Assembly (NCBI GenBank): GCA_963674735.2
Contig: CAXXQS010000003.1
Coordinates: forward strand, 1 to 64,000
From: Myxococcota bacterium
GTDB lineage: Bacteria > Myxococcota_A > SURF-8
DNA length: 64,000 nt
Reading direction: 5' to 3'
Position 1 is the first letter of the stretch; each line of letters starts with the position of its first letter. A program made the position numbers and the translations under genes. Under the pieces are notes generated by a model. The model searched no databases. It had not been told where the DNA came from and saw only the letters and a program-made list of their open reading frames with translations. Of this stretch, positions 14,935 through 64,000 are shown one piece after another.

Positions 14935-16044
14935 ATGACCCATCGATTGGTTCAAAGCCTGTATGTGTTCGTGCTTATGTTGCTGGTGTTGTCACCGGTT
15001 TTGTCGGGTTGTGCCGCCAAGCAGAACATGATTGCCGAAACCGACCAACTAAAAGCGCGTACCGACCAGGTGCGGGCCAAGCAAAAGGAAGTGTTGGAAC
15101 TCGGCGGGCCGGTTTGCGGACTCAAAGAGCTGGCCGTGGCAGAGTCGCATCGCGCTTTTGCCCTCTACGAAATCGACATGGGTGAATACCCCGCCGTTCG
15201 TCATCATCTCGATTATGGAACGGAACAAGCCGCGTTGGCTTACCGCAAAGCCAAAGCTTGCGAACCGCCGGATCGCGACAAAGACCGGGTGCTCGACGAT
15301 GTGGATCAATGCCCGGACGATCCCGAAGATCGTGACGGTTTCGAGGATGAGAACGGTTGTCCCGATCCTGATAACGATCAGGACGGGCTGTTGGATGCCG
15401 ACGATAAATGCCCGGATGATGCCGAAGATAAAGACGAATTCCAGGACGAAGATGGTTGTCCCGATCCCGATAACGACGAAGACGGGGTGCTGGATATCGA
15501 CGACCAATGTCCGATGGATCCGGAAGACAAAGACGGCTGGGAAGATGAAGATGGCTGTCCCGATCCCGACAACGATCAAGACGGGCTTTTGGATCCGGAT
15601 GACAAATGTCCCGATAAAGCCGAAACCTTCAACGGAATCGACGATGAGGATGGCTGTCCGGACGAAAGCGATTACAACCTGATTCAGGTGACGGATTCGG
15701 CCATCGAGCTGAAACAGAAAGTTTTCTTCGGAGTCAACTCAGCGGTGATTTTGCCCAAATCCTTCCCGCTTCTAAACGAAGTGGCTCTGGCGTTGAAAGA
15801 ACATCCGTCTTTCAAAGTGGAGATCGGCGGTCACACCGACTCCAACGGTCCCGACAAATACAACCAACGCTTATCGGAGCAGCGAGCCAAATCGGTTATG
15901 AAATACCTCGTTACCAAGGGGGGCGTCGCTCCGAACCGCTTGTCGGCAACCGGCTATGGCGAGTCGCAACCTTTAGACACCAATCGAACCCGCTCGGGAC
16001 GGGCGCGCAATCGTCGCGTTGAATTCAAAATCACCAGTAAATAG
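14935..16044 (+). CDS. OmpA-family lipoprotein with thrombospondin type-3-like Ca-binding repeats
   Basis: Lipobox LSGC; four 33-aa D/C-rich repeats; OmpA_C motifs GHTDS, NQRLSEQRAKSV, GYGESQP, NRRVEF. Confidence 0.92.
   Translation: MTHRLVQSLYVFVLMLLVLSPVLSGCAAKQNMIAETDQLKARTDQVRAKQKEVLELGGPVCGLKELAVAESHRAFALYEIDMGEYPAVRHHLDYGTEQAALAYRKAKACEPPDRDKDRVLDDVDQCPDDPEDRDGFEDENGCPDPDNDQDGLLDADDKCPDDAEDKDEFQDEDGCPDPDNDEDGVLDIDDQCPMDPEDKDGWEDEDGCPDPDNDQDGLLDPDDKCPDKAETFNGIDDEDGCPDESDYNLIQVTDSAIELKQKVFFGVNSAVILPKSFPLLNEVALALKEHPSFKVEIGGHTDSNGPDKYNQRLSEQRAKSVMKYLVTKGGVAPNRLSATGYGESQPLDTNRTRSGRARNRRVEFKITSK
15268..15663 (+). repeat. four ~99-bp intragenic repeats encoding TSP3-like units PDxDxDGxxDxxDxCPxxxEDxDGxxDEDGC
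   Basis: Visible 33-aa periodicity in the translation. Confidence 0.85.
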
Positions 16045-16240
16045 GCCTAGATAAGATACTCTCACCATTCTCCGTACCCTGCTGGGAAGTTTTCCCGGCC
16101 AGGGGCGGAGGTTCGATGTGACAATCCGCTTGGCTTCAGCCCGACAAATGAGGTATAAATATAAAGATAACCTGCGGATAAGGGCGTGTGGGCTCTCATG
16201 CGTAAACGGGTCATTTCCACTAGGAGTGTGGGATTTAACG

Positions 16241-19200: not shown

Positions 19201-20998
19201 TGGTGTGCCGCTCTGCGATGAAGGCGTGTGTAAAGTCGGGAGTTGCAACTACGGTTGGGGAAATTGTGACGAAGGTTATGAAAATGGCTGCGAGGAATCG
19301 CTGCTTGTCAGCGAAGATCACTGCGGCGAATGCGGAGCGCCTTGCTATCCCGACAATGGCATCGGCCAATGCAATTACGGTCAATGCACGATCCGCGCCT
19401 GCGATTTCGGGTATCGGGATTGTGAAAACGGTGTGGTGGACGGGTGCGAAACCTATGTCGAAAGTAGTTTGGACCACTGCGGTGAATGCAATAATCCCTG
19501 TGCGCCCGCCCATGCGATTCCAATCTGTACGGGCGGTATTTGCGGACTTTCCGGATGTGACGAAGGCTACCGCAACTGCGATACGTCCATTGTCAACGGC
19601 TGCGAACGCAACATCCTGACGGATACCTATAACTGTGGAAACTGCGGTATCTGGTGTCAGCCCGATAACGGAACCGGCTATTGTAACGACGGAACCTGCG
19701 CCGTGCAGACTTGCTTCGGCAGCTTTCGTGATTGCAATGAAGCGTATAGCGACGGTTGCGAAGTCGACACCAAAACGGATGCGGAGCACTGCGGCTCTTG
19801 TTTTGAATCTTGTTTGTACGATCATGGAACCGGAAAATGTTTCAATAGCTCGTGTTTGCTCAACAATTGCACCGATCCTTGGAAGAATTGCGATGAGAGT
19901 GAGGAAAACGGCTGCGAGTCCAACAGCTTGTCCGATCCGGCCAACTGCGGCAATTGCGATGTTGTGTGTCCCACTCCGCCCAACATGTACAATGCCGGTT
20001 GTTTAAACGGCGACTGCATTCCGGGTGTGTGTGTCGAAGGTTACAAGAACTGCAACGGTGATTATTGGACTACCGGCTGTGAAACGGATATCTACAATGA
20101 TCCCGACAGCTGTGGTGACTGTGGCGAGGTTTGCGAGCTGGCTAATGCGATTACGGGATGCAGCCTGGGCGAATGTGTGATCGAATCCTGTATCGATGGT
20201 TTCGAGGACTGTAACGGTAATCCGACCGATGGCTGTGAAATCAATACGCGTGACGATCCCGATCACTGCGACGGCTGCAATCAAGCCTGCAATCTTTCCC
20301 ATGCCGACCAGCATCGTTGTGTCGGTGGAGTTTGCCATGTGTTGACCTGCGATGAAAACTGGGGCGACTGCGATCTCACCCAGACAAACGGCTGCGAAAA
20401 GGATCTGCGCAGCGATGTCAATAACTGTGGTGTTTGCGAACGGGAATGCCCGGCGGTTGGGGGGCAGCCCGAATGCACCAATGGTCTCTGCCTGACCAAT
20501 TGTGGTGATGGGTATGCCGAATGCGACGGCAATCTGGCGAATGGCTGCGAAGCCGATTTGGACGCGGTGACCAACACCTGCACGGGCGGTTTGACGATGC
20601 AGCGCACCGACGGCAACGGCTCCATCCGGGGTGATGACGGGCAGGATGTCACCTTCACCTATTCGGAATGGGGTGAAAAGTGGTTTAGCGTGAATGTGAC
20701 CGAAGATAACGCCTCTTGTATTTACCTCAGTGTCTGGCTGGTTCTGGATGTTCCTCCCGGAATGGATTACACCATGGAAGTTTATCGCGGCACCTGCAGC
20801 AACCACATCGTGAGTGGGTCGGGAGGCGTTGGGGTCGATGAAACGGTGAAATACTGCGAAGACGATCAGTGGGGCTCGGATGACGACTTCACGCTCTATG
20901 TTCATGTCAACTTCGGCTCCGGCAACCAATGTGCGGAATGGTCGTTACAGGCTATCGGCAATTTAGCCGTCTCGGGTTGCGGTTGTACGATCTTCTAA
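16241..20998 (+). CDS. giant (~1585 aa) surface lipoprotein: six Ig-like choice-of-anchor-D/ASH domains, a Cys-rich repeat stalk and a C-terminal beta-sandwich
   Basis: ATG 16241 after AGGAG; lipobox LWAC; six P..(L/Y)DFG.V...N.G..L.(I/V) domains; nine to ten ~52-aa GCE...D..(H/N)CG.C...C repeats. Confidence 0.85.
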   Translation: MKSKQLINAVTGLVCLLLLTGLWACSGSGEQEDGDLTAGSCRSDSDCPSGMACGNDGYCYDPDTDGDELACETHRDCPNGQLCEDYQCVPNEIPDEDVDIEETDGDVEEDGEGAMTDGDKEEEASSQARIQVPAVIFFPPLATGDSHDEDLLIESVGEEDLLITGINATDSSSPDFSPVGLPEFPVQLASGDSLKLTIRYQQSNSGFDNGQILIASNAENSTSGLVNLQVQETGLPKLRCESTSLDFDITDIGSQGRMLDLVCHNDRLNDEDDNLLTISRLELDPDSTPHFKLDESVPNRIVIRSGRSVDISVWYTPAQEGEHSAELQLYHNSSGVESPLAIALTGEGGGKHLSLDPTALHFGQVRIGEEVRQTVALSATGDFPVTIQLIEFEPGTSADFRVYLDGLLDDGSFLLEAGGSETIEVGFNPSQINLQTADLLIVSNAVEGPSQSLTCDGEGTDFDLHTDPAALDFAAVEVGEKALEQVAVVNDGNEAVEVLSLEFETAAGVFGIEGSGAPFLVNPGASQTLTVSFTPDDETAFENALIFNLDHNDFPSISLPLNGEGARPHVEIEPSSRLYDFGEVNLGEVREFDFVVRNTGGIPLTLSDFQWLQAQTGDPNQTLDVQLDGSPDIEPQSSRNLHATFSPPFDGPTGAMPLSAEREYGFSTTDTDNPELSVSVSGIMVDPHVAIDPPGPSYDFGSVLPGFEATPIEVVLTNDGTGTLSVTDIHLTADSDTDAIWLAGLPDSFPVELLPNGTRAGQTQLRFTVHFLPPNLNQFNAMLRIVNEGYTDKNLSISIVGNGSNCSQGLHPCAGECVANEHVDHCGSLCDPCPETDYGYAICSPFLTSYVCDILCDEHFVKVNGQCEPVNTDDCCGVDCLDCTLSHPDNGSGACDEGQCVVDCDQNYHLVEGECLINDTVDCCGLQCLQCPERLNATRVCVAGACDFECIDDFDDCNERASDGCEVHLPSNVNHCNLCDNACTVNNGVPLCDEGVCKVGSCNYGWGNCDEGYENGCEESLLVSEDHCGECGAPCYPDNGIGQCNYGQCTIRACDFGYRDCENGVVDGCETYVESSLDHCGECNNPCAPAHAIPICTGGICGLSGCDEGYRNCDTSIVNGCERNILTDTYNCGNCGIWCQPDNGTGYCNDGTCAVQTCFGSFRDCNEAYSDGCEVDTKTDAEHCGSCFESCLYDHGTGKCFNSSCLLNNCTDPWKNCDESEENGCESNSLSDPANCGNCDVVCPTPPNMYNAGCLNGDCIPGVCVEGYKNCNGDYWTTGCETDIYNDPDSCGDCGEVCELANAITGCSLGECVIESCIDGFEDCNGNPTDGCEINTRDDPDHCDGCNQACNLSHADQHRCVGGVCHVLTCDENWGDCDLTQTNGCEKDLRSDVNNCGVCERECPAVGGQPECTNGLCLTNCGDGYAECDGNLANGCEADLDAVTNTCTGGLTMQRTDGNGSIRGDDGQDVTFTYSEWGEKWFSVNVTEDNASCIYLSVWLVLDVPPGMDYTMEVYRGTCSNHIVSGSGGVGVDETVKYCEDDQWGSDDDFTLYVHVNFGSGNQCAEWSLQAIGNLAVSGCGCTIF

Positions 20999-36600: not shown

Positions 36601-37392
36601 ATGAATGACACGACAATCTCAAACCCGATTACCCCGCAAACAATTCAATTGTCGGCGGTGGTGATTTGTCAGAATGAGGCGGCGCGACTTGCGGCCTGCC
36701 TGGAATCGCTGGCCTTTTGCGATGAAATCGTTGTTGTGGACGGCGGCAGCCGAGATGAAACCGTCGCCATCGCACGGCGGTTTACAGATCGCGTATTTGA
36801 GCGACCTTATCGCGGTACAAACGACCAGAAAGAGCATGCACGGCGGCTGGCGACCGGTGTTTGGGTTTTGAACCTCGACGCCGATGAAACAGTCCCACCC
36901 GCATTGGCAGACGAAATTCGTGTCGCTATCCGCTTGAACCGTTCAACAGGCTATCGCATTCCGGTAAAAACCTACCTGGGTGGACATTGGCTGCGCCATA
37001 ACGGCTATTTTCCCAATCTTCAACGCCGGTTGTTTATACGGGAGCGGGCTGTTTGGGATCGAAGCCGAGAACCGCATGACCGAGTTTGCCTGGAAGGCCG
37101 CTGGGGAAAGTTGACGACCCCAATCGAACATGCGACCGCCGACTCTTTCGGCGAATTGGAAGCGAAAGCATGCCGTTACGGAGCACAAGCGGCCGAACGC
37201 ATGGCGGAGACCGGGCGAAAGGTGAGCACCTTGGATGCGTGGTTTCGACCTCGCTGGCGTTTCGTACGCAGTTATTTGTTTAAAGGCGGGTTTCTCGATC
37301 GTGAATTCGGATGGAAATTAGCCCGTTTACAGATGTTGGAGGGAAAAATTAAATATTCGCGGGATTCCCTGAAATCGCCGCAACGAACTTGA
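36601..37392 (+). CDS. GT2 glycosyltransferase, KdtX/WaaE-like (LPS core)
   Basis: NEA..L..CLESL.FCDEIVVVDGGS.D.T, WVLNLDADE, F.RSY..KGGFLD. Confidence 0.9.
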   Translation: MNDTTISNPITPQTIQLSAVVICQNEAARLAACLESLAFCDEIVVVDGGSRDETVAIARRFTDRVFERPYRGTNDQKEHARRLATGVWVLNLDADETVPPALADEIRVAIRLNRSTGYRIPVKTYLGGHWLRHNGYFPNLQRRLFIRERAVWDRSREPHDRVCLEGRWGKLTTPIEHATADSFGELEAKACRYGAQAAERMAETGRKVSTLDAWFRPRWRFVRSYLFKGGFLDREFGWKLARLQMLEGKIKYSRDSLKSPQRT

Positions 37393-37477
37393 TCGTTTGC
37401 CTCGAAATATGATAGTTTCCAAAGGGTTGAGAGTTCCTCGAAAAGCAAACGCAAATGCAGGGATAAAAGGACCAAGG

Positions 37478-38608
37478 ATGAAAACGCGTGATCCGTTTTA
37501 TGGGAGCAGACCGTACAACCTGCTGATATTACGTATGAGCGCTTTGGGGGATATCATACACACCCTGCCTGCCGTGCAGGCGTTGTACGAACGCTACCCA
37601 AAAACCAAGTTGGTTTGGACGGTGGATGAACCCTACAAAGACCTGCTGAAAGATCTTCCGATGCTGAGCGGGATTGAATCTTTCGATCGCTCGAAAGTCA
37701 CCCGCAAACTGAGAACGCTGGAAGGTTTCTGGTATGCGGTTGGAACGATCTGGGCTTTTATCAAGCGTCTACGTTTCATCAACTTCACCGGGTCGATCAC
37801 TTTTCAACCGCTGATACGCGCTTCGATTCTAGCCTGGCTTTCAGGCGCGCGCGTTCGCCTCGGTTTTCGGCGTTGGGCTGAAGGCGGCTGGTTTTGCCAG
37901 ACGAATCGGGTGCGAGTGAAGAAAAACCGACATGCCATTATTCAAAATCTTGAATTGTTGAGACCTTTGGGGGTCGATCCCGTTCCCAAACGTGTTCCCA
38001 TTGCGATTACGGATGTTGAACGTCAAGCGGTGGAGGTGTTTCTTCGACAAGAGGGGATCAACGCCGAGCGCTTGGCGATCCTGTCCCCCGGTTCGTCGAA
38101 AGCGGTCAAGCAGTGGACGATCGAGGGTTATGCCGGGCTAGCGGATGGTTTGGTAAATGACATGGACTTCACGCCGTTGATTGTCTGGGGCCCGGGGGAG
38201 GAACCGCTGGCGCGACGGATTATGGATGCGATGGAAGAACCCGCCGTCTTGGCTCCTGCCTTGAAATTGCGCGAGTTGGCGGCGTTGTGTGAGAAAGCTC
38301 GGCTGTTTATCGCCCCCGATTCAGGACCGCTTCATCTCGCGGCTGCTATGGGAACTCCCGTTGTGGGCATTTTCGGACCCACCGACCCGCAGATCACCGG
38401 CCCATTTTGGGAACCCAACCGGGTGGTGCGTTTCAATGCCGATTGCTCACGCAAATGTCACCGGCGGCGGAACAATCCCGATGCGCGTTGTCAATGCCTG
38501 CAGGAACTGAACGTCCGTGAAGTTTTAACGGCTTGTCAGTCTCTGGAACGCCAAATAGCCACTGAACGTTGGCCGGCCCCATCGGCTACTCATGCGGATG
38601 TTGAATGA
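37478..38608 (+). CDS. GT9 LPS heptosyltransferase (WaaC/WaaF-like)
   Basis: RMSALGDIIHTLP, PGSS...KQW, WGPGE, DSGPLHLAAA.GTP.VGIFGPT. Confidence 0.92.
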   Translation: MKTRDPFYGSRPYNLLILRMSALGDIIHTLPAVQALYERYPKTKLVWTVDEPYKDLLKDLPMLSGIESFDRSKVTRKLRTLEGFWYAVGTIWAFIKRLRFINFTGSITFQPLIRASILAWLSGARVRLGFRRWAEGGWFCQTNRVRVKKNRHAIIQNLELLRPLGVDPVPKRVPIAITDVERQAVEVFLRQEGINAERLAILSPGSSKAVKQWTIEGYAGLADGLVNDMDFTPLIVWGPGEEPLARRIMDAMEEPAVLAPALKLRELAALCEKARLFIAPDSGPLHLAAAMGTPVVGIFGPTDPQITGPFWEPNRVVRFNADCSRKCHRRRNNPDARCQCLQELNVREVLTACQSLERQIATERWPAPSATHADVE

Positions 38609-54454: not shown

Positions 54455-55609
54455 ATGCGACCGATTGTGAAAATCTTGATCATCAACGGTATTTTTATGC
54501 TGGTCATTCTGGCTATTGCCGAATGGGCGGCGCGTAAGCTTTTCGATAATGCCTTTTTGCTTGAAGGCAACCAGTACGTTTTTTTCGAGTTCGACGAGCA
54601 ACTTGGTTGGCGGGGGAAAGCCAATACTAAGGGGATGTTTACTCGTGGCGAAGAATTTTCCACTCAGGTGAACACCAATCGTTTCGGAATGCGGGAACGG
54701 GAGGTCAGAAAAAAGAAAGAAGACGGTGTGATCCGGATTGCCGTACTCGGTGATTCCTTTACCTGGGGTTTCGGCGTCGAAACCGACGAAATCTATACCG
54801 CCGTTATGCAGCGTGAACTCGGTTCCCGTTTCGAAGTGCTGAACTTCGGGGTCAGTGGTTATGGACGTGGCCAACAGTGGCTACAATTGGAAAGCCAGGT
54901 GGCCGATTTTTCAGCGGATCTCGTGCTGATTATGGCTTATCCGGGCAACGATCTCTACGACAACCTGGCCGATGATCTCGCCTACGAAGTCTACCCGCGT
55001 CCGCGCTTTTCCCTCGACGACAAGGGACAGCTGGTTGTTTTGGGGCAGCCGGTGAAACCGCCATTGGGAGATTTTTCCGAGCGCTTGTTCATGCGACACA
55101 CGGGAGAATGGATGGGTGTCTATATGCGTTCTTATCTGTTTCGGGTGCTTTATCAAGTTTTTGCCTCGATGCAAAAATCCTGGGAGCAGAATCCGGCTGA
55201 TTACCTCAATCCCATTTATCAGCAGCACAATCGCCAAAAACTCAAAGAAGCGGCGAGGGTGGAAACCGCAATTCTTAAAAAAATCCGATCTTTTTGCCGC
55301 GCACAAGGGTGCAAGGTATTAGAGGCAATCGCCACAACTTCCGAACAGGTGCGACCGGCTTTGCAGGATGAATTGAGGAAACGTTTTCCCGATATCCCGG
55401 TTGACTGGGAGCAGCCTGCGCGGATTTTGACGGAAGCGGCTACGCGGGCAGGTGTCGATATCTACGATCTGGCTCCGGTTCTAAAAGCTGCCGAGGAGCG
55501 TGGGGAGCGCACGCATCGTGAAAAGGATTTCCACTGGACGCCGTTGGGCAATCGTCTTGTAGGGGAAACGCTGGCTCCGGTTGTGCGGAACATGATGGAA
55601 CGACGCTAG
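54455..55609 (+). CDS. membrane-anchored SGNH/GDSL hydrolase (AlgX/AlgJ-like acyltransferase or esterase)
   Basis: N-terminal TM; N..G.R, RIAVLGDSFTWG, NFGVSGYG, GND, DFHW..LGN. Confidence 0.88.
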   Translation: MRPIVKILIINGIFMLVILAIAEWAARKLFDNAFLLEGNQYVFFEFDEQLGWRGKANTKGMFTRGEEFSTQVNTNRFGMREREVRKKKEDGVIRIAVLGDSFTWGFGVETDEIYTAVMQRELGSRFEVLNFGVSGYGRGQQWLQLESQVADFSADLVLIMAYPGNDLYDNLADDLAYEVYPRPRFSLDDKGQLVVLGQPVKPPLGDFSERLFMRHTGEWMGVYMRSYLFRVLYQVFASMQKSWEQNPADYLNPIYQQHNRQKLKEAARVETAILKKIRSFCRAQGCKVLEAIATTSEQVRPALQDELRKRFPDIPVDWEQPARILTEAATRAGVDIYDLAPVLKAAEERGERTHREKDFHWTPLGNRLVGETLAPVVRNMMERR

Positions 55610-55729
55610 CAGCGATCCTTCAATTCCAATAATATGTTGCGATTTTCATTTCTCCAGGTTTAGAATACCTCCTTGCGCAGATTTATTTTTTGTCCTTCAC
55701 CCAACGATACGCATGTTTAATACCAATCG

Positions 55730-57478
55730 ATGACGTCTAATTTGCCGAAACGCTACATCGCGATTCCCCTGGTGGTCCTGGCGGCCTACCTGTCGCCCTA
55801 CTTGATTTTGGGGCAGGATCATTACGTTCGTATTCACGACTATCTGGATAGCGTACTGGTTTTCTATAAAATACTCGCGCAAAGCGGCTTGATTTTCGCA
55901 CCCAACCAGGCCATCGTACCGAATTTGATGGGTGGGTTGGAACGTGCTTGGTGGCCCAGTGAGGTGAACGTATTTTTATGGTTTAACGTGTGGTTCGGAC
56001 CCTTCGGCGCGACAGCCGCCAACGAAGTCATCAGCCGGTTGGTGGCTTTTTTCGGCATGTTTTTATTCGTGCGGCGCTTCATCTTGTCCGATGAGCGTCC
56101 TCCGCTTGTGGCGGTGCTGGCCGGATTGTGTTTTGCCCTCGTCCCGCACTTTCCCGGGTCGCGCCTTTCCATCGTCGCCCAGCCGCTGGTTTTGTATGTC
56201 TTTCTCACGATCCGCGCCCGCCAAGATAAATGGCGTCACTGGCTGGTGCTGATTTTCGTTCCTTTCTATTCAAGTTTCGTTGTTTATTATTTTTTCTTTC
56301 TTGCATCCATGGGGACTCTCTGGTTGATCGACACCCTTCGCAAGCGACGTCCGGATTGGCGGTTTGTGGCCAGTATCGCGTTGATGACGGCTGTGTTTCT
56401 AGGCCTCGAATTCCGGTTGGTACAGACCATGCTGCTGGATGCCCAAGTGGTATCACATCGGGCGGAATTCACATATTACCAGGATCGCAACCTGGTCGAT
56501 GCGGCCTCTCGTTTCGTTGACAATCTGAAAAACGCCCACCATCATGGGTATAGCTTCCATTGGCCGGTGGTGGTGTTCACGGTTCTCCTGGCGGGCATCT
56601 GGGGTGGTATCCAGCGCCGTCGTCTACGAATCTATATGTTGCTGGTGGCGGGCATCGTTTTTTGCAGCCTCGCCAATGGGTTGTATTACTCGCCGGTAGT
56701 CGAGGCGTTATATCGGGTTGCCCCCATCACACGGCATTTCAACATTTCGCGCTTCAACCTGTTGCACCCGCTATTATGGTATCTGCTGTTTGCCGTGTCT
56801 TTGGCGATGATCGAAAAGTTGTCGAAAAACGGGCGCATACTTGTTTTGCTTCTGGCTGGATTGCAGGTGGCCTATTTATTTTATAACAGCGATTTTAGTC
56901 GTGAATATCGCGAACATGGAATCAGCTACCGACAATTCTATGCCGAGGAGTTGTTTGATGAGGTCGAGGCGGCCATTGGGGAACCGAAAGAAAGCTATCG
57001 GGTGGCCGTGATCGGTATGCACCCGGCGATCCCCCTGTATAACGGTTTTCATACCGTCGGCGGCTATTTTTACAATTATCCGCTAGCGTACAAACATGCC
57101 TTTTACCGGATTATTCGCCACGAATTGGCGAAAAGCCCGCATTGGAAGGGCTTGTTTGTTAACTGGGGCAGTATGGCTTACGTTTACTCGGCTGAGCTTA
57201 GCGAGGCCGACTATCTGATACCCCGCCTGCATCGGAATATCAACCACCTGGAACTTGATCCCAAAGCCTTGTGGAACCTTGGCGGACGTTATGTGATTTC
57301 GGCGTTGCCCATTGCCAATCCTGCCGATAACCGACTCACACCATTGCGTGCTTTTACCCACCCGGACAGCGCCTGGAATGTTTTTCTTTACCGGTTGGAA
57401 AAACCTGCTACGAAAGAAGAAGAGCAGAGTCCGGCAACGAATTCAATCGAGCCCGATCGCCTTCCACCTTCCGAGTAG
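55730..57478 (+). CDS. polytopic membrane protein, DUF6044/YfhO-like, putative GT-C glycosyltransferase
   Basis: About 11-12 TM helices; HDYLDS acidic motif in the first external loop; SHR.EF, FN.SRF, FY...LF, NGF.T..GY..YPL.YK..F. Confidence 0.7.
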   Translation: MTSNLPKRYIAIPLVVLAAYLSPYLILGQDHYVRIHDYLDSVLVFYKILAQSGLIFAPNQAIVPNLMGGLERAWWPSEVNVFLWFNVWFGPFGATAANEVISRLVAFFGMFLFVRRFILSDERPPLVAVLAGLCFALVPHFPGSRLSIVAQPLVLYVFLTIRARQDKWRHWLVLIFVPFYSSFVVYYFFFLASMGTLWLIDTLRKRRPDWRFVASIALMTAVFLGLEFRLVQTMLLDAQVVSHRAEFTYYQDRNLVDAASRFVDNLKNAHHHGYSFHWPVVVFTVLLAGIWGGIQRRRLRIYMLLVAGIVFCSLANGLYYSPVVEALYRVAPITRHFNISRFNLLHPLLWYLLFAVSLAMIEKLSKNGRILVLLLAGLQVAYLFYNSDFSREYREHGISYRQFYAEELFDEVEAAIGEPKESYRVAVIGMHPAIPLYNGFHTVGGYFYNYPLAYKHAFYRIIRHELAKSPHWKGLFVNWGSMAYVYSAELSEADYLIPRLHRNINHLELDPKALWNLGGRYVISALPIANPADNRLTPLRAFTHPDSAWNVFLYRLEKPATKEEEQSPATNSIEPDRLPPSE

Positions 57479-57495
57479 CGCATCCCTAAACCGAC

Positions 57496-57506
57496 TGTGG
57501 TATAAT
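57496..57506 (+). promoter_or_regulatory. extended -10 promoter for wecE
   Basis: TGTGGTATAAT about 35 nt upstream of ATG 57541, with AAGGAG SD. Confidence 0.55.
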
Positions 57507-57540
57507 CCCGCCGAATTTGAACCCCGTGTAAGGAGAAGCG

Positions 57541-58677
57541 ATGTCCGGCCACATTCCTTTCAACCGGCCTTCGATGACGGGTCGTGAGATGGATTACATT
57601 CTGGATGCCATTCAGCGCGGCCATATTGCCGCCGGTGGACACTATACCTCCCGGTGCGAGCGCCTGCTTGAAGAGTCGTTGGGTGTGAAAAAAGCCCTGA
57701 TTACCCCGTCTTGTACGCATGCCCTTGAAATGGCGGCGCTGCTGCTCGATCTCAAGCCCGGCGACGAGTTTATTTGCCCGTCTTTTACCTTCGTTTCTAC
57801 CGCCAATGCTTTTGTCTTGCGCGGAGCCAAACCGCAGTTTGTGGATATTCGCCCTGATACACTTAATCTCGATGAGACGAAAATCGAAGCCGCCATTACC
57901 GAGCGGACCCGTGCCATCGTGCCGGTGCATTATGCCGGAGTAGGTTGCGAAATGGACCGCATTCGCGACATCGCCGACCGCCATGGGCTCCAGGTGGTGG
58001 AAGATAACGCTCAGGGACTCTACGGCACATATCGGGAGCGCCCTTTGGGCGGTTTCGGCGAGCTGGCGACAGTGAGTTTTCACGAAACCAAGAACTTCAC
58101 CTGCGGAGAGGGCGGGGTGCTGCTGGTGAACGATCCACGCTATATCGAACGTGCGGAAATTATTCGCGAAAAAGGTACCAACCGCAACCGCTTCCGTCGT
58201 GGTCAGGTGGACAAATATACCTGGGTGGATATTGGATCCAGTTATCTTCTTTCCGATCTGTGTGCGGCGTTCTTGCTGGCCCAGCTTGAAAATCGACAAA
58301 CCATACAAGAAACGCGTCGTGCCTTGTGGGAGCAATACGCGAAGGGTCTTGCCGACTGGGCGGGTGCCAACGAAGTCGGCCTGCCACAGTGCCCGGAGCA
58401 TTGCCAGCATACTTCTCATTTATTCTACCTGCTGATGCCGTCCATCGATAGTCGTCAGGCACTCATCGATCATTTGAAGGCGCATGAAATCATGGCTGTT
58501 TTTCATTATATCCCGCTGCACGATTCGGATATGGGGTTGCGTTACGGGTATCATCATGGCGATCTCCCGGTAACTGAGGATATCTCCGACCGACTTTTAA
58601 GGTTACCGCTTTATAACGGCATGACAGCGGAAGAACAGAATCGTGTGATGGCGGCGGTCAGGGGTTTTGTGGTTTGA
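57541..58677 (+). CDS. wecE: dTDP-4-amino-4,6-dideoxygalactose transaminase
   Basis: IPFN.P, TPSCTHALEM.A, PSFTFVSTANAF.LRGA, VHYAGVGC, SFHETKN..CGEGG, EKGTNR..F.RGQVDKYTWVD.GSSY. Confidence 0.93.
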   Translation: MSGHIPFNRPSMTGREMDYILDAIQRGHIAAGGHYTSRCERLLEESLGVKKALITPSCTHALEMAALLLDLKPGDEFICPSFTFVSTANAFVLRGAKPQFVDIRPDTLNLDETKIEAAITERTRAIVPVHYAGVGCEMDRIRDIADRHGLQVVEDNAQGLYGTYRERPLGGFGELATVSFHETKNFTCGEGGVLLVNDPRYIERAEIIREKGTNRNRFRRGQVDKYTWVDIGSSYLLSDLCAAFLLAQLENRQTIQETRRALWEQYAKGLADWAGANEVGLPQCPEHCQHTSHLFYLLMPSIDSRQALIDHLKAHEIMAVFHYIPLHDSDMGLRYGYHHGDLPVTEDISDRLLRLPLYNGMTAEEQNRVMAAVRGFVV

Positions 58678-59686
58678 GATGCGGACCCTGGGTCGCGTGC
58701 ACAATGCCACCGGTGAGATACACGACCAGACGCGCCAGAAAGATCAGGAAACACAGCATCAAGGCGTCGGAGAGCGGCACTCCGAGTTGAACCAACAAGA
58801 AGGTAAGCGTTCCTTCGCGGATTCCTACCCCACCGAGCGAAATAGGAAGAATGGTGATCAGGTTGGCCAGAGGCATGACTAACAGCATCTGCAGCAAGCC
58901 GATTTCCAGCCCTAAAGCCTGAGCTAGGCAAAAGGCTCCCAAGAAGTCACAGAATTGATAGCCGCTGCTGAGAATGAGAGCTTTTGGCCAAGTCCCGGAT
59001 GGAGCCTCGCTTAGCGTGTGTGCGAGCATGAAAGTTCGGTTCCATAAAGCGCTCCACCCATGATGGGTATTGTGTGGTCGAGGCAACCGGCTTGACAGAA
59101 AAAGCAGAGAAGCCAGTGCAAGCAACCCGACTCCCGCGGCAAGAGGAAGGAATATCCGCAAAGAGACTCCGGCCGCTTCAATGGCGGGAATGGGAGTGAA
59201 AAACGACATACAGGCGGCAAGAATCAACAAGCCCGTAAAACCCATAGTGCGTTCGGCAAGAACGGTCATTCCGGCTTTCACGGCCAATTTGGTGCGTGTT
59301 CGCGCGTAGAGCAAGATGCGCAGAGCGTCACTGCCGAACCAGCCCGGCAGGATGATGGCATAGTAACTGGCAGAAAGATATAGGATAAAAGGTTCCAGCC
59401 AGCCTATCGGCAGGCCGAAGGCTTTGAGTAACAAACGCCAGCGTTGCCCCGCGATGAAAAGACCGGTAATGGATAAAAGGGGGGCGATCCAAGCGATGCG
59501 CCAGTTGGTGCGTGCCAACACGTCGCGAGCACGTTCCCAGTCGGTGACATAGATCAAGTACGATACGATCCCGAGCGATACCGCTAGCTTGAGTGCGAAT
59601 AGCAAACGGCCGCGCCAGGGCTTGGGAGCCGGTGCGATGGATGAGGTGGAGGGTTCGATCATCGATGTCTGTTTTTGCGTACTCAA
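58658..59686 (-). CDS. lysylphosphatidylglycerol-synthase-TM / flippase-like (UPF0104) membrane protein
   Basis: K..VS, RW..LL, LPG..G.D..R, ER..G, LPIS.GG.G.RE motifs; about 8 TM helices. Confidence 0.85.
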   Translation of the reverse strand: MSTQKQTSMIEPSTSSIAPAPKPWRGRLLFALKLAVSLGIVSYLIYVTDWERARDVLARTNWRIAWIAPLLSITGLFIAGQRWRLLLKAFGLPIGWLEPFILYLSASYYAIILPGWFGSDALRILLYARTRTKLAVKAGMTVLAERTMGFTGLLILAACMSFFTPIPAIEAAGVSLRIFLPLAAGVGLLALASLLFLSSRLPRPHNTHHGWSALWNRTFMLAHTLSEAPSGTWPKALILSSGYQFCDFLGAFCLAQALGLEIGLLQMLLVMPLANLITILPISLGGVGIREGTLTFLLVQLGVPLSDALMLCFLIFLARLVVYLTGGIVHATQGPHLKPQNP

Positions 59687-59689
59687 ATC

Positions 59690-60913
59690 TTAATCCTGGC
59701 TCTTGTCGCTTTCGGCAGGAGTTACTCGAATCGTCACCTCATCGACGAAGTCGAGAAGCTGACGTCGTGCCGAGTCGTAGCTGTCGGTTTCGGTCGTGAT
59801 CATCATCAGGCGCGCTCCGTCGTGCTCGACTCCTTCCAATTGCACGCCATTGGGACGCAAACGGCGTGAGCTGGTAATGCAATGGCGCTCGAAAGCACCT
59901 TCCGGGATCTCCATATCCGAAAGTGTTCCCCGCTGGTCGGTTGTCAGGAAATAACTGCCATAATAGCTGTTATTACAAGCTTTTGGCGGGTCAGGAAGCT
60001 CTCCCAGAGCAAGGCGAATCGTTGCACCGTACACGTCGTAGTTCCATTTCGAGGGAACGAGTCGGGCCATAATGGCGCCGCCTGCCAGCCGGGGGCCGAT
60101 GTCGATGATACGAGGTTCCCCTTCTTTGTCGATGGCCATGTCGATATGGGTGGGACCCCATTGAATACCCAAACGCCGAATGGCTTCGGCATTGGCTTTG
60201 AGGACGCGCTGCTGGATTTCCGTCGGCAGAGCTGAAGGAAAAAGGACTCCGAGAGTTACGTTTCGGGCAGCCGGGTGGATGAGTTTATCGGCGATCGTCA
60301 TGACATGAACGTGACCGTCGAATACCATCGATTCAACACCCAATATAGGACCATCGATGAATTCCTCGATGACCACTTCCGTCGTGCGGCTATGTCGCCG
60401 GGCACATGAAAACGCTTCGCGAATAAGTGAATGGTCATCGGTGTTTACACGGGATATTCCTTTGCCTCCGCCTCCGTCGGCAGGTTTGAAAGCCAGCGGA
60501 TAAGTTAACGGCGATTGTTTTGCGAGCGCGTCTTCGAAGCTTGTGGCGATCACTCCTTTGGGAGTCAGATCGCCTAATAGACGCCGAAAACGGTCTTTGT
60601 AGACTGCGTTGAGGGAGGCGGCATAGGAAATGAAATGGCGACTGAGAGACAGCTTCTCGGTGACATAGGCGCAGGTGCAAATTGCGGTGCTGGTGCCGCA
60701 GGTGACGAGTCCCCGGATGTCCTCGCGTTTTGCCAGATCAAGTACCGTGTCGTGATCGGCCGTATCGATGGGCAGGAAGAGATCGGCCGCTTCGGCTGCT
60801 GCCGGTTTGGCTTCTCCGGCACCGATTACAATCGCCCGATAGCCCAACTCCTGGGCTTTTTCAACCAGCGGAATCTGATTGTAGGTCGCTCCGAGAATGC
60901 AGATCGATTTCAT
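59690..60913 (-). CDS. ATP-grasp ligase (amino-acid-ligase-like)
   Basis: ILGA...Q, YP...KP.DG.G.KG, EEFIDG, H.D.....IIDIGPRLAGG. Confidence 0.88.
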   Translation of the reverse strand: MKSICILGATYNQIPLVEKAQELGYRAIVIGAGEAKPAAAEAADLFLPIDTADHDTVLDLAKREDIRGLVTCGTSTAICTCAYVTEKLSLSRHFISYAASLNAVYKDRFRRLLGDLTPKGVIATSFEDALAKQSPLTYPLAFKPADGGGGKGISRVNTDDHSLIREAFSCARRHSRTTEVVIEEFIDGPILGVESMVFDGHVHVMTIADKLIHPAARNVTLGVLFPSALPTEIQQRVLKANAEAIRRLGIQWGPTHIDMAIDKEGEPRIIDIGPRLAGGAIMARLVPSKWNYDVYGATIRLALGELPDPPKACNNSYYGSYFLTTDQRGTLSDMEIPEGAFERHCITSSRRLRPNGVQLEGVEHDGARLMMITTETDSYDSARRQLLDFVDEVTIRVTPAESDKSQD

Positions 60914-62034
60914 GGGTGATTACCGTTCAAGCCGGATTCGTTAACAATTTCCATGATTTTATCGGCAGAACAGTCTGCTAAACCGAGGTGTTCAAGCGTG
61001 CGGCCGTCGGCTCGGTAGTCGCGGTTGTGGATACGCCCGGCCAGACGTATCAGCATATCCGCCATCGGAGTCGGGACTCCGAGTTTGCGGCCCAATGAAT
61101 CAATCGGGACAAGTCCTGTCGGCACATCATCGGTGATGTAGCGGTGATCCAGCGTACGTGGGGCCTCGATCGTCCGGTAGTAATCGGTATCCTGCAAGGC
61201 GGTGAAGAGGTCGTTGCCCCGGCTTCCGTAGTTTTCATTCAGCCATTGGCAGGTGGAAATCATCGACAATCCGAGTTTCCGACCCACGGCCATGCGCTCT
61301 CCATCGAGTTCTTCAAGGAGTTGCGCGACGGAGGGTGTGATTCCGTCGTAGTAATACATGAATTGAGTTCGATCGGTCTCGATCCAGCCCATGTTGAGGA
61401 GAGTCGGCAACGGGTGAAGAATGGCTCCCACGCTATTCAAACCGGTTTCCAGGATGTTGGAGGCTTTCTGAAATACCGGTAACAACTCATTCAACGTTGT
61501 CAACACCTCGTCGCTACGAGTGGCCGGGAATGCGGCGAGACGAACAGCCGGTTTGACGCAGATAATGTCTACGATTTCGGCTTCAATGTTGCGGCAGGTG
61601 TGTACGAGCGTATTGGTTTCCGCCAAGGTGATATCGGCGCATAAGCCCGCCGTTAAAAGGGCTCTGTAGAATTCGATCGAGCCGAACAACCTGCCGGGAT
61701 TGAGGAGAAGGATCTGTCCGTCGACGAGATGCGGGGCGCATAACTCGGCAAGCTCCGCATGGGCGTTCGCGGTTACCGTAAGCATGACCAATTCCGCACT
61801 TTCCAGTGCTTTGCGAATATCGCTGGTAACGGTTGCGATACGACCCGTACCCGATACGACACCGGTAAGTTTCAGTTCAGGGTTTTGGTGCAAGCCCGCG
61901 AGACGGGCTTCGCTGCGGTTGTAGAGGGTTATCCGGTGTCCGAGAAGTGCGAGATGACCGGCGAGAGCTTTTCCCCCGTTGCCCCCTCCGATAACGGTAA
62001 TTCTGCGGGTAGAAGTGGAAGTCATGTTGCACAT
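60910..62034 (-). CDS. NAD(P)-dependent opine (octopine/nopaline) dehydrogenase
   Basis: GGGNGG.A.A.HL Rossmann motif, LNPG, AET.TL, ILHP, FMYY.DG.T, D.ER..V, HRY.TDDVP.GL. Confidence 0.9.
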   Translation of the reverse strand: MCNMTSTSTRRITVIGGGNGGKALAGHLALLGHRITLYNRSEARLAGLHQNPELKLTGVVSGTGRIATVTSDIRKALESAELVMLTVTANAHAELAELCAPHLVDGQILLLNPGRLFGSIEFYRALLTAGLCADITLAETNTLVHTCRNIEAEIVDIICVKPAVRLAAFPATRSDEVLTTLNELLPVFQKASNILETGLNSVGAILHPLPTLLNMGWIETDRTQFMYYYDGITPSVAQLLEELDGERMAVGRKLGLSMISTCQWLNENYGSRGNDLFTALQDTDYYRTIEAPRTLDHRYITDDVPTGLVPIDSLGRKLGVPTPMADMLIRLAGRIHNRDYRADGRTLEHLGLADCSADKIMEIVNESGLNGNHP

Positions 62035-63926
62035 GTATCCTTGTCAAATGAACCGTCGTGTTCGCGCATCCTGGCCAGACGATCCAGCCGAGCGGCGACA
62101 TCGAGGGGTTGTCCACGTTCATTCACCAATTCCGTACCGCCGTTGATCAGTCGGCTGTTCCAGTCGACGGCATGTGGGAATGTTTCCCGGCAATTCCATA
62201 GATTGGGAACCGGCAGGTAGCCTTCTTCGAAGATGCGATAAAGGCCCGCTGCTGAATAAGGATCGGGAATTCGGCGCTCGATGTCGTGTAGAATTTCGTG
62301 TGCCTCGGAAAGCAGCTGCTCGCGGCGTTCGGTTACGGTTTCCCCGCTGATGAGATCCCTCAACCCAAGCCGATTCCGCAGAGTCGGATAATGTGTCAAG
62401 GCGGCTTTTGCGATTCGTACGCTTTCGTTGATCACCTTCGGCGTGGCGAGCTGGTCGCCTTCAGAATAACTGACGACATGGAGAATCGGTGGACTGCTCG
62501 GGTTGTCGGGTTCCACGTCCGTCATCAGCGCGGTTGTCGCCGCTAATTGGATTTTTGCCTTGTCGAGATCGGGAGAAAAATAATCCAAACCGGCACGTGG
62601 CTGATAGATGATATGAAAAGACGAATCCGCCAGGCTACCGACTAGAGATAAAAGGGCACGCGCCTTGGCCAGATCGTTGAGCCCCGACGAAGCTTTCGGT
62701 AGATTCAACATGTTTTGCAACACCAGATAACCGACTCCGGCTTTCTTGGCTGTCCTTGCCGCCAAGTAGGAACTTACAAGATAGGTGACATCGTCTGCAC
62801 CGCGAAAGGCGAAATGGTGCGGGACGTTGGGTTCGAAAGGACGTCCACAGCGAGCGATATAGCGGATCGCGGCAAGATGTTCGTCCAGGTTTTGTTTGAC
62901 GGAATTGGGACCCCGGCCGTCGATTTCCGAAAACCACCAGAGTGAGAGTGCGTGCCAGGCGTTATGCAGGCTACGTTCTAAAATTTTGGCCATTTCGACA
63001 ACGTGTTTCGACCCGGAATAGGCGCGCACCAGCATGGGTTGGGCGGCTTTCCAGATCGTTGCAAACTCACGTTCGTCATGGATTGGGGTGCCGCCCCCGT
63101 TGATACGTCCCGCCCAACTCTCGCCGAAGGCCGATTGAGTCAGTTGGGACGAGCCGATGGACGCGATGTCGAGCCAACCTGCTTTTGCAAGTTGTCGGAC
63201 CCAGTCGATAAGGCGTTTCACGGCCTCCAGACGGTTCGATTGATAGGGGCCGACGTGGGCACGGAACAAGGGCAGTCGTCCTGCTTTAGCTGCATGGGTG
63301 AGGCGCAGGATCAAATGGTCGTTGGGGGAGCCCATTTCCGGATAATTCAAGGGTGAAGGCGGTTGTTGGGCTAAGTGAGCCTCGCTGCCTAACAGATCGT
63401 TCCCGAAGTCCATGCGTTCGTTGTCGTATTCAGCGGTGGTTTGAATCGCCTGAGGAATTTTTTCTTCAGGAATTCCGAGCAGACGTAGGGTCTGAAGCGG
63501 AGTTTCATCTCCCATGAAGACCGGAAAACGCCTTTGGAATACCCGTTCGATCCGTCTGCATGCGTCGGGTAACCCAGCGAAATAGAGAGATTTGATTGTG
63601 CCACCCGTTCCGGTGTCCAGCAGCTTTTCGGCGGTGAGTCGCACGACGAAGTGTTCGAAAATCGTTGTTGCTTGATCCGGGTCGAGTCTGTAGCTGATAC
63701 CAAGTCGTGTGATGCCGTGTCGGCGAACCCAATCACACACTTGTGCAAAAGCGAGAGGGGATTCCATGTTTTCGGCTGCGGTAGCAATGGTATTGTCTGC
63801 ACTGTAAACCCGATAGCCGCAATCCTCCAGCAGATCGGCCACGGCACTTAGGCCCAATGTATGCGCGTCCGTGTACGGCTTGATCAGTCCGAAAACGTCC
63901 GTCTGGCCGCAATGGATGTCGGGCAT
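62022..63926 (-). CDS. cobalamin-binding protein: N-terminal B12-binding domain fused to a large mutase-like catalytic domain
   Basis: DAHTLG (DxHxxG) followed by ISY and FAG strands of the B12 Rossmann domain; about 450-aa alpha/beta C-terminal region; no CxxxCxxC. Confidence 0.75.
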   Translation of the reverse strand: MPDIHCGQTDVFGLIKPYTDAHTLGLSAVADLLEDCGYRVYSADNTIATAAENMESPLAFAQVCDWVRRHGITRLGISYRLDPDQATTIFEHFVVRLTAEKLLDTGTGGTIKSLYFAGLPDACRRIERVFQRRFPVFMGDETPLQTLRLLGIPEEKIPQAIQTTAEYDNERMDFGNDLLGSEAHLAQQPPSPLNYPEMGSPNDHLILRLTHAAKAGRLPLFRAHVGPYQSNRLEAVKRLIDWVRQLAKAGWLDIASIGSSQLTQSAFGESWAGRINGGGTPIHDEREFATIWKAAQPMLVRAYSGSKHVVEMAKILERSLHNAWHALSLWWFSEIDGRGPNSVKQNLDEHLAAIRYIARCGRPFEPNVPHHFAFRGADDVTYLVSSYLAARTAKKAGVGYLVLQNMLNLPKASSGLNDLAKARALLSLVGSLADSSFHIIYQPRAGLDYFSPDLDKAKIQLAATTALMTDVEPDNPSSPPILHVVSYSEGDQLATPKVINESVRIAKAALTHYPTLRNRLGLRDLISGETVTERREQLLSEAHEILHDIERRIPDPYSAAGLYRIFEEGYLPVPNLWNCRETFPHAVDWNSRLINGGTELVNERGQPLDVAARLDRLARMREHDGSFDKDTCAT

Positions 63927-63927
63927 C

Positions 63928-63999
63928 TCAATCGAGCTCTTTGGTGCGAATCGTTCCGGTGGGCATGCGGCGGACTTCGAAAAGAATTCGGATGAGATA
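63928..63999 (-). CDS. partial: C-terminal 23 aa of a probable GtrB/ArnC-like polyprenol-phosphate glycosyltransferase (continues beyond the window)
   Basis: Frame reads YLIRILFEVRRMPTGTIRTKELD-stop, resembling the EY(I/L).RI..E...RP...I tail; stop is 1 nt before the next ATG. Confidence 0.55.
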   Translation of the reverse strand, partial: YLIRILFEVRRMPTGTIRTKELD

Positions 64000-64000
64000 T

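Follow-up and report, generated by a model that had tools for sequence, protein, structure and literature searches.

At one end of a 64,000-nucleotide stretch of DNA from a Myxococcota bacterium (GTDB lineage Bacteria; Myxococcota_A; SURF-8), two converging groups of genes encode eight proteins that may together build an acylated amino sugar and deliver it to the cell envelope on a lipid carrier. The stretch, referred to throughout as the window, comprises positions 1 to 64,000 of the forward strand of contig CAXXQS010000003.1 (GenBank assembly GCA_963674735.2) and opens the contig, which is 197,689 bases long and was read past the window end to complete the outermost gene of the locus. The proteins include a WecE-type sugar aminotransferase, a family 2 glycosyltransferase (GT2), an ATP-grasp ligase, an opine dehydrogenase and, as the least familiar component, a 634-residue B12 protein.

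Eight genes on two converging strands

The minus-strand genes are tightly coupled: the GT2 and B12 genes are separated by a single nucleotide (nt), the B12 and opine dehydrogenase genes overlap by 13 nt, the opine dehydrogenase and ATP-grasp genes overlap by 4 nt, and a 3-nt gap precedes the flippase-like gene, which in turn converges on wecE with a 20-nt overlap (Table 1). The original prediction had described this arrangement from the letters of the window, and the open reading frame (ORF) coordinates bear it out. In Pfam and NCBIfam scans seven of the eight products are named well above curated family thresholds, the exception being the B12 protein. Since the genes on one flank (HSP90, Fe-ADH, a cytidylate-kinase-like gene) and on the other (acetyl-CoA synthetase, an aspartokinase-like gene, TsaE, PdxJ) are unrelated housekeeping genes, we take the unit to consist of the eight genes. 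Synteny did not define the borders of this island, the only neighbor common to genomes G024 and G018 encoding an 896-residue protein, with no other flank gene within 20 kb there.

Table 1. Genes of the locus, with coordinates in the window, strand, product length and basis of assignment.
Product	Position	Strand	Length (residues)	Basis
SGNH/GDSL hydrolase or O-acyltransferase, AlgX-like domain	54455-55609	+	384	Pfam
DUF6044 membrane protein, predicted GT-C fold	55730-57478	+	582	PF19510, fold search
WecE-type dTDP-4-keto-6-deoxyglucose 4-aminotransferase	57541-58677	+	378	NF008687, TIGR02379
MprF-like (LPG_synthase_TM / UPF0104) flippase-like membrane protein	58658-59686	-	342	PF03706, TIGR00374
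ATP-grasp amide ligase, L-amino-acid-ligase kind	59690-60913	-	407	three ATP-grasp models
Opine dehydrogenase, NADPH-type, predicted acidic-amino-acid specific	60910-62034	-	374	Octopine_DH, 1bg6
Single-chain B12 (DxHxxG) domain with predicted glutamate-mutase-like TIM barrel, uncharacterised family	62022-63926	-	634	motif, fold
ArnC/GtrB-type polyprenyl-phosphate GT2	63928-64890 (last 73 bases, 63928-64000, inside the window)	-	320	PF00535, ArnC/GtrB match

The aminotransferase scores 583.8 bits against NF008687 (cut-off 375) and 554 bits against TIGR02379 (cut-off 434.85), and only 245.5 bits against the ArnB model (cut-off 631). WecE produces dTDP-4-amino-4-deoxyfucose (dTDP-Fuc4N), and a dTDP-glucose 4,6-dehydratase is encoded elsewhere in the host genome (TIGR01181, 426.7 bits; cut-off 365.1). 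The ATP-grasp protein exceeds the cut-offs of three models (ATP-grasp_4, 37.6 bits; ATP-grasp_3, 38.1 bits; CPSase_L_D2, 39.4 bits), and its best solved relative is the L-amino acid ligase BL00235 (3vot, E 5e-20); the LAL_C2 domain is not matched in the window protein and is matched in its counterpart in genome G217.

Four of the other proteins have membrane segments. The gene upstream of the B12 gene, of which the original prediction had seen only a tail, encodes a full-length GT2 (PF00535, 108.2 bits) of the ArnC/GtrB type, whose 320 residues align with ArnC from 14 to 311 (9hwj, E 2.3e-46) and with GtrB from 3 to 311 (5eke, E 4.1e-36), with two C-terminal hydrophobic segments at 241-259 and 277-295. 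The flippase-like protein, which has at least six membrane segments, matches PF03706 (LPG_synthase_TM) with 128.9 bits (cut-off 33.4) and TIGR00374 with 54 bits (cut-off 43.2). The SGNH protein scores 47.5 bits on Lipase_GDSL_2 (cut-off 32.9) and 31.6 bits, again over cut-off, on ALGX, and carries one N-terminal hydrophobic segment (residues 4-22) as a membrane anchor; a role for it in the system is suggested by its position only. By hydropathy WecE, the ATP-grasp protein, the opine dehydrogenase and the B12 protein are soluble.

DUF6044 (PF19510, E 3.8e-169; about nine membrane segments) had been proposed as the extracytoplasmic transferase of the locus, and its predicted fold agrees with that role. 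In a Foldseek search with an AF2 model (pLDDT, the predicted local distance difference test, 90.1; 28 sequences), ranks 1-35 were all GT-C proteins: STT3, ArnT (5f15, rank 4), PglB, AglB, AftA, AftD, DPY19 and ALG9/12. D37, part of the consensus HDNLDS in the first outer loop, after helix 1, is invariant in the 28 sequences. Earlier leads from the ESM Atlas (PTPS_related, YfhO and GT-C_AftD clusters) were superseded by the fold search. The DUF6044 family model also matches the Bacillus subtilis control genome, in a gene that may be ykoS. No publication on DUF6044 was found (in this and the other literature searches reported here, most subscription journals were outside the scope).

The B12 protein and its partner dehydrogenase

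The 634-residue protein had been called a B12 protein from the motif D20-A-H22-T-L-G25 (DxHxxG). H22 and G25 are shared by all 20 sequences of the family alignment, D20 by at least 90%. The protein lies below every Pfam and NCBIfam threshold, its sole match being to the B12-binding model PF02310 (E 0.01, residues 14-52); eight of the 20 family members match PF02310 at E<=0.01, and a paralogue in genome G078 exceeds the cut-off of that model with 39.5 bits. A sequence search against solved structures gave only chance-level matches (E 0.36 or worse). Comparison of folds was more informative: with an AlphaFold model (pLDDT 86.2, alignment of 20 sequences), Foldseek placed glutamate mutase E first (1cb7_B, E 2.7e-11), followed by lysine 5,6-aminomutase, ornithine 4,5-aminomutase and methylmalonyl-CoA mutase. 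We interpret the protein as representing a new family of single-chain adenosylcobalamin mutases, closest in predicted fold to glutamate mutase.

The family is large. A search matched more than 2,852 clusters at 90% identity, the best 120 of them all about 50% identical to the window protein over about 96% of its length and drawn from many phyla, some under the name ‘cobalamin-binding protein’ given by their sources. A profile search of 1.84 billion representatives returned 567 members (clusters at 50% identity) with E<=0.001, of which 187 have E<=1e-30. Three distant members carry as a fusion MutL/GlmL (PF13941), with which glutamate mutase is partnered; another, P0162, combines a B12-binding PF02310 domain (28.2 bits, below the 32.1 cut-off) with Met_asp_mut_E (PF06368; 27.5 bits, cut-off 26.6) and a C-terminal ATP-grasp domain, and in one the end of an opine dehydrogenase is joined to the B12 domain. 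The fused members carrying MutL/GlmL or PF06368 appear to bridge the family to glutamate mutase.

The same observations bear on whether the protein is instead another kind of corrinoid protein, such as a methyl-transfer protein or a sensor, built on a TIM barrel and not a radical mutase. We think this quite unlikely: in the fold comparison GlmE and the two aminomutases score 8-10 Z units over generic barrels, distant relatives are fused to MutL/GlmL or exceed the PF06368 cut-off, and the B12-binding_2 cap domain was reported in no scan.

A second subfamily of the predicted mutase, 544-607 residues long, carries C-V-H-V-A-G in place of DxHxxG; it is represented at L116 373-2007 (Clostridium ultunense) and L115 6131-7954 (G078), in each case adjoining an opine dehydrogenase (locus and genome handles, L and G, are used where examples must be told apart). 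Identity is 46% within this subfamily, in which PF02310 exceeds its cut-off, and 32% to the main family, to which hhalign links it with 100% probability. At L106 2644-2810 (Clostridium sp. Cult1), two fragments of a second-subfamily mutase (23 and 31 residues) follow an opine dehydrogenase and look like a decayed gene. The window's host genome encodes both PduO-type and CobA-type corrinoid adenosyltransferases.

The opine dehydrogenase (Octopine_DH, 166.2 bits; cut-off 30) aligns over residues 10-360 with the Arthrobacter enzyme CENDH/ArODH (1bg6, E 8.7e-74), and this alignment places R115, G203 and R40 of the window protein at ArODH positions 111, 198 and 35, respectively. We compared 45 sequences, namely the 44 opine dehydrogenases called beside a mutase in the loci described below and the window's own. 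All 45 have Arg at 111 and Gly at 198, and 43 have Arg at 35; H207, which aligns with ArODH H202, is likewise invariant, as is D303, presumably the aspartate of the catalytic His-Asp dyad. Such a dyad is named as catalytic in opine dehydrogenases by Telek et al. 2024 (PMC10787698), who describe six metagenomic enzymes (mODH) that favor L-Asp or L-Glu with pyruvate and NADPH, report that exchanging two residues of ArODH together, Ala for Arg at position 111 and Asn for Gly at 198, changes which of Phe and Asp is preferred, and find Arg at position 35 to mark NADPH use. The window enzyme shares the HPLPTLLN and D-V-x-T-G-L-V-P stretches with ArODH, and the Arg/Gly pair and the Arg at 35 with the mODH enzymes. 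In contrast to the present setting, those enzymes have been studied as biocatalysts, and that paper never mentions cobalamin, B12 or genomic context.

Because the Arg/Gly pair is present in 45 of 45, we predict an acidic amino acid as the substrate of the mutase's constant partner, a specificity that fits a glutamate-mutase-like enzyme. The ‘rearranged amino acid’ of the original prediction would then probably be acidic, of the glutamate or 3-methylaspartate type. At L115 15710-18223 (G078), the opine dehydrogenase domain occupies residues ~470-800 of an 837-residue frame; either the domain is fused to an N-terminal part that was not recognised, or the ORF has been drawn too long, the genome being GC-rich.

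Gene neighborhoods across the mutase family

A scan of one genome per species located mutase relatives in 487 species loci, 80 of which were kept for tblastn with the window proteins; ORF-based tags cover 78 loci. The greedy ORF caller missed some genes, picking up the mutase in 79 of 81 loci and the opine dehydrogenase in 44, where tblastn gives 51, and the two kinds of count are kept apart here. The original prediction had suggested checking whether the B12 protein co-occurs with opine dehydrogenase, ATP-grasp, wecE and GT2 genes, and tblastn detects such co-occurrence: opine dehydrogenase homologs occur in 51 of the 80 loci, ATP-grasp in 23, DegT/WecE in 19 and GT2 in six, with the flippase-like protein in two.

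Four settings can be distinguished. In the first, seen in Bacteroidota, Lachnospiraceae and other groups, polysaccharide loci run Wzx, DegT, ATP-grasp, opine dehydrogenase, mutase, GT2, among CapD, RmlA, 2-epimerase and GT4 genes. The second resembles the window: L041, L044 and L073 combine WecE (48-58% identical) and GT2 (35-45%) with mutase, opine dehydrogenase, ATP-grasp and a flippase-like gene, L021 being a fragment of the same kind, and in all four ORF clustering places a member of the flippase-like family beside the ATP-grasp or GT2 gene. The third consists of opine dehydrogenase, mutase and asparagine synthetase, in that order. In the fourth, found mainly in Aminicenantes, the mutase stands alone among housekeeping genes; all five lone-mutase genomes searched have an opine dehydrogenase elsewhere (E 1e-72 to 1e-96), which adjoins a second-subfamily mutase in one and remnants of such a mutase in another.

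Several of these loci hold further genes. Between GT2 and WecE, L041 (Bacteroidales, 14938-18554) has two hexapeptide acyltransferases, two HpcH/HpaI genes of citrate-lyase/malyl-CoA-lyase type and one MaoC/mesaconyl-CoA-hydratase-like gene, which hint at C5-dicarboxylate chemistry. At L043 3723-18053 (Azoarcus indigens), opine dehydrogenase, mutase, ATP-grasp and DegT genes have as neighbors a gene for flagellin, one for a TPR/GT41-like transferase and one for a 1257-residue GT2/GT4 fusion, an island that may serve flagellin glycosylation. Beside the lone mutase in eight Aminicenantes-type loci, two conserved genes with no Pfam match (408 and 370 residues; L010 11872-13098 and L018 5620-6732) flank glutaminyl-tRNA synthetase.

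Among the phylum's genomes the mutase is scarce, occurring in two of 301 (G000 and G078) and in none of five genomes of the same family, and this rarity alone suggests a horizontal origin of the cassette. The opine dehydrogenase occurs in three: G000, G078 (on the same contig as the mutase) and, weakly, G176.

The glycan setting of the ATP-grasp loci speaks to a possibility that the original prediction had raised against itself, that the cluster makes an opine-type metallophore similar to staphylopine. An opine dehydrogenase is the last enzyme of metallophore pathways (bioRxiv 10.1101/641969), a TonB-dependent receptor and HmuY follow the pair in L036, and an ABC ATPase is encoded less than 8 kb away in five loci. 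None of those loci, however, has an ATP-grasp gene. The versions that do lie in glycan contexts, with DegT in 18 of 23, mostly directly beside ATP-grasp, and the remaining five comprising three short contigs (L021, L026, L051) and two loci with glycosyltransferases (L053, L054); family scans of the window's cluster revealed no nicotianamine-synthase-like gene or metal transporter. We consider a metallophore very unlikely indeed.

The third setting suggests a different use of the pair. Several asparagine-synthetase loci have MscS channels, Na+/H+ exchangers, CLC channels or TrkH beside them, and in a search of six such loci with Rfam gathering thresholds a cyclic di-AMP riboswitch lies directly upstream of the operon in L059 (8592-8724, 77 bits), an nhaA-I Na+/Li+ riboswitch directly upstream in L058 (3769-3824, 41.1 bits) and a further nhaA-I element on the divergent strand in L065 (6834-6885, 47 bits). 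This company suggests that the acid made by the pair, once amidated, is a salt-stress solute; our literature search found no publication joining an opine dehydrogenase with a compatible solute. Since two alternative amide-forming enzymes accompany the same pair, its product would have a free carboxylate available to ammonia or an amine.

It follows from this setting that the mutase, opine dehydrogenase and ATP-grasp enzyme of the window might also yield an unattached small molecule, for instance a solute against stress or an acid resembling a dipeptide, with the sugar genes as bystanders. The ion-transport genes and riboswitches of loci lacking sugar genes favor such a product, as does the nearest solved relative of the ATP-grasp protein, an enzyme that makes dipeptides. 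The two versions nevertheless keep apart: asparagine synthetase and ATP-grasp are never found together (0/78 loci), nor are ion-transport and sugar genes (0/78), the asparagine-synthetase versions lack sugar genes throughout, DegT accompanies most ATP-grasp genes, and at the gathering threshold no riboswitch, including the cobalamin riboswitch, was found at the window's locus (L002). On balance we regard a free product at this locus as unlikely.

DUF6044 follows a distribution of its own, being over cut-off in only five of the 301 phylum genomes. In G217 (L102 2045-8702) it lies directly after WecE (55% identical to that of the window), in a locus with an LAL-type ATP-grasp, Amidohydro_2, a methyltransferase and a GT2, from which both mutase and opine dehydrogenase are absent; a GT2 comes after it in G113, and in G024 and G048 it occurs without WecE, GT2 or mutase. 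Because G217 has the sugar ‘chassis’ of WecE, ATP-grasp, GT2 and DUF6044 without the mutase pair, chassis and acid-making module are separable. Gene content thus points to a recurrent set that may take other acids, into which the B12/opine pair would be a plug-in.

A proposed envelope-decoration route

Taken together, the eight genes could constitute an envelope-decoration system that works like the Arn pathway, which handles 4-amino-4-deoxyarabinose (Ara4N), with a different cargo, an interpretation that we consider evenly balanced between right and wrong. In the cytoplasm, WecE would make dTDP-Fuc4N, while the B12 mutase and the NADPH-dependent opine dehydrogenase would build a polycarboxylic opine, the likeliest chemistry being rearrangement of a glutamate-type skeleton (e.g. 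to 3-methylaspartate) and reductive condensation with pyruvate, in either order. The ATP-grasp enzyme would link one carboxylate of this acid to the 4-amino group of the sugar, the ArnC-like GT2 would place the N-acylated sugar on undecaprenyl phosphate, and the MprF-like protein would flip the lipid-linked sugar. DUF6044 would then transfer the sugar to an envelope acceptor (lipopolysaccharide, LPS, another glycan or a protein), and trimming or O-acylation of the product may fall to the SGNH protein. Our confidence is high for the enzyme families, fairly high for the lipid-carrier route, moderate for the amide to Fuc4N and low for a 3-methylaspartate-type opine. Much of this was foreseen in the original prediction, whose pathway logic is supported by comparison and not by chemistry. 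The sequences show how the genes are arranged and coupled, a family or fold for each protein and the comparative linkage, and from these the substrates, step order and acceptor are proposed.

Elsewhere in the window, a GT2 beside a GT9 heptosyltransferase (36601-38608) indicates that the host makes an LPS-type core, and OmpA, LolA-like and DUF1302/DUF1329 genes are consistent with a diderm envelope. Downstream of PilZ and OmpA-family genes, positions 16118-20998 encode a 1626-residue protein with HYDIN/ASH-type Ig-like domains and DUF1573.

Several observations weigh against the proposed route. Sugar genes accompany the mutase in only 23 of 78 loci, most having none, and the mutase/opine-dehydrogenase pair is not intrinsically a glycan module. 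The window ATP-grasp protein is 49% identical to that of L021 and only 21-33% identical to most glycan-locus ATP-grasps, so that a shared substrate is not assured. Characterised GtrB/ArnC enzymes use UDP-sugars, and a dTDP-linked donor would be unusual. For the mutase, the sequence link to GlmE is undetectable (hhalign probability 0.65% against six Clostridia GlmE sequences), the window protein has no PF06368 (Met_asp_mut_E) match and just one of 20 family members does (E 0.0089), and tblastn of 85 loci found no GlmL-type reactivase or methylaspartase nearby. The substrate residues of GlmE, which we take to be Arg66, Arg100, Arg149, Glu171 and Tyr181 (invariant in the GlmE alignment made here), cannot be mapped onto the mutase because there is no detectable sequence relation, and its substrate may be other than glutamate. 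Finally, tblastn found homologs of DUF6044 and SGNH in none of the 80 mutase loci, so that only this window and G217 link them to the minus-strand operon.

This last point raises the prospect of two unrelated units that merely converge, with SGNH, DUF6044 and WecE forming an ordinary Fuc4N set served by another GT2, and the minus-strand operon making a modified lipid or soluble product that the MprF-like protein flips or exports. MprF-type domains flip aminoacyl lipids, and the occurrence of DUF6044 apart from WecE, GT2 and mutase in G024 and G048 also agrees with separate units. Against this, WecE orthologs in L041, L044 and L073 share their loci with GT2, mutase, opine dehydrogenase and ATP-grasp, DUF6044 is found with WecE, GT2 and ATP-grasp in G217, and the two halves complement each other, the minus strand having a GT2 and flippase without a GT-C and the plus strand a GT-C without a GT2. 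We therefore judge separate units improbable and retain a single envelope-decoration system as the preferred interpretation.

The Arn pathway of polymyxin resistance (ArnB, ArnA, ArnC, ArnD, ArnE/F, ArnT), which supplies lipid A with aminoarabinose, follows the same logic, with a DegT 4-aminotransferase, N-acylation, an ArnC-type GT2 acting on undecaprenyl phosphate, a flip and a GT-C enzyme; ArnC is the best solved match of the window GT2, and ArnT ranks among the closest folds to DUF6044. There are also differences. The sugar nucleotide is UDP-Ara4N in the Arn pathway and predicted to be dTDP-Fuc4N here, formyl transfer by ArnA would be replaced by an ATP-grasp enzyme with a B12/opine module, the window cluster has an MprF-type flippase and DUF6044 as its GT-C, and no ArnA, ArnD or ArnE/F family was found among the eight genes in family scans. 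The window system would thus work like Arn, but it is not a member of that pathway.

A membrane GT-A enzyme making a sugar-linked undecaprenyl phosphate, a flippase and a GT-C enzyme also act together where teichoic acids and O-antigens are glycosylated, one example being the YkoT-YkoS pair of B. subtilis, which is uncharacterised (PMC8035078, PMC11081497). GtrA/B/C, CsbB-GtcA-YfhO and YkoT-YkoS share this logic with the window, whose GT2 matches GtrB; in contrast to the window system, which adds an aminotransferase, a ligase and an acid-making module and has a flippase that is not GtrA-type, these systems move plain hexoses or N-acetylglucosamine.

The predicted cargo has a chemical precedent. 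As the original prediction had noted, opine-acylated amino sugars are known: in the Providencia alcalifaciens O35 O-antigen, the 4-amino-4,6-dideoxyhexose Qui4N is N-acylated by N-(1-carboxyethyl)alanine (alanopine) (PMC10609480), the same kind of N-(1-carboxyethyl)amino acid amide as proposed here. Alanopine, however, needs no mutase, whereas the amino acid of the window is predicted to be acidic and rearranged. Glutamate mutase itself (GlmS/GlmE with GlmL/MutL; EC 5.4.99.1; PDB 1cb7, 6h9e) differs from the window mutase, which is one chain with an N-terminal B12 domain, belongs to a subfamily with no sequence-level match to it and has neither GlmL nor methylaspartase nearby.

The closest antecedent is a comparative study by Zhang, Rodionov, Gelfand and Gladyshev 2009 (PMC2667541), which predicted, in 11 genomes, a B12 family with a distant N-terminal B12-binding domain that is ‘always adjacent to’ pfam02317 and has either asparagine synthase or a gene of D-Ala-D-Ala-ligase type nearby. 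This description matches the window's mutase pair, and we equate the two by description, not by sequences; that study gave neither a fold nor a function and drew no connection to glycans or lipid carriers. The original prediction is right that no characterised pathway combining these parts is known; the pair, with a Ddl-type ligase or asparagine synthase close by, had been described as early as 2009. Our own searches found no publication combining opine dehydrogenase, ATP-grasp and cobalamin, and no relevant one on opine dehydrogenase with O-antigen or on glutamate mutase with opine. What is new is that the mutase/opine-dehydrogenase pair is coupled to WecE, an ArnC-like GT2, a flippase of MprF kind and a GT-C from the DUF6044 family, together with the acid-specificity signature across the linked dehydrogenases, the MutL/GlmL and PF06368 fusions, and the finding that the two amide-forming versions exclude each other.

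No function has been assigned to this large mutase family since it was flagged in 2009. As a tentative proposal for the whole family, one that we find doubtful though possible, the single-chain mutase may rearrange an acidic amino acid or its opine and, with the dehydrogenase, yield a tricarboxylic opine that becomes either an amidated salt-stress solute or, as a Fuc4N amide, an anionic decoration delivered by an Arn-like route. The window provides a concrete setting, in which the other steps can be guessed from known families, so that the product should be readable from the envelope glycan. If the proposal is true, it would add a new B12 reaction and explain the metagenomic ‘acidic’ opine dehydrogenases; it would constitute the first B12-dependent step in envelope glycan decoration; and Arn-like routes would deliver anionic, amino-acid-bearing sugars besides cationic ones, with a bearing on surface charge and on phage and antimicrobial-peptide recognition.

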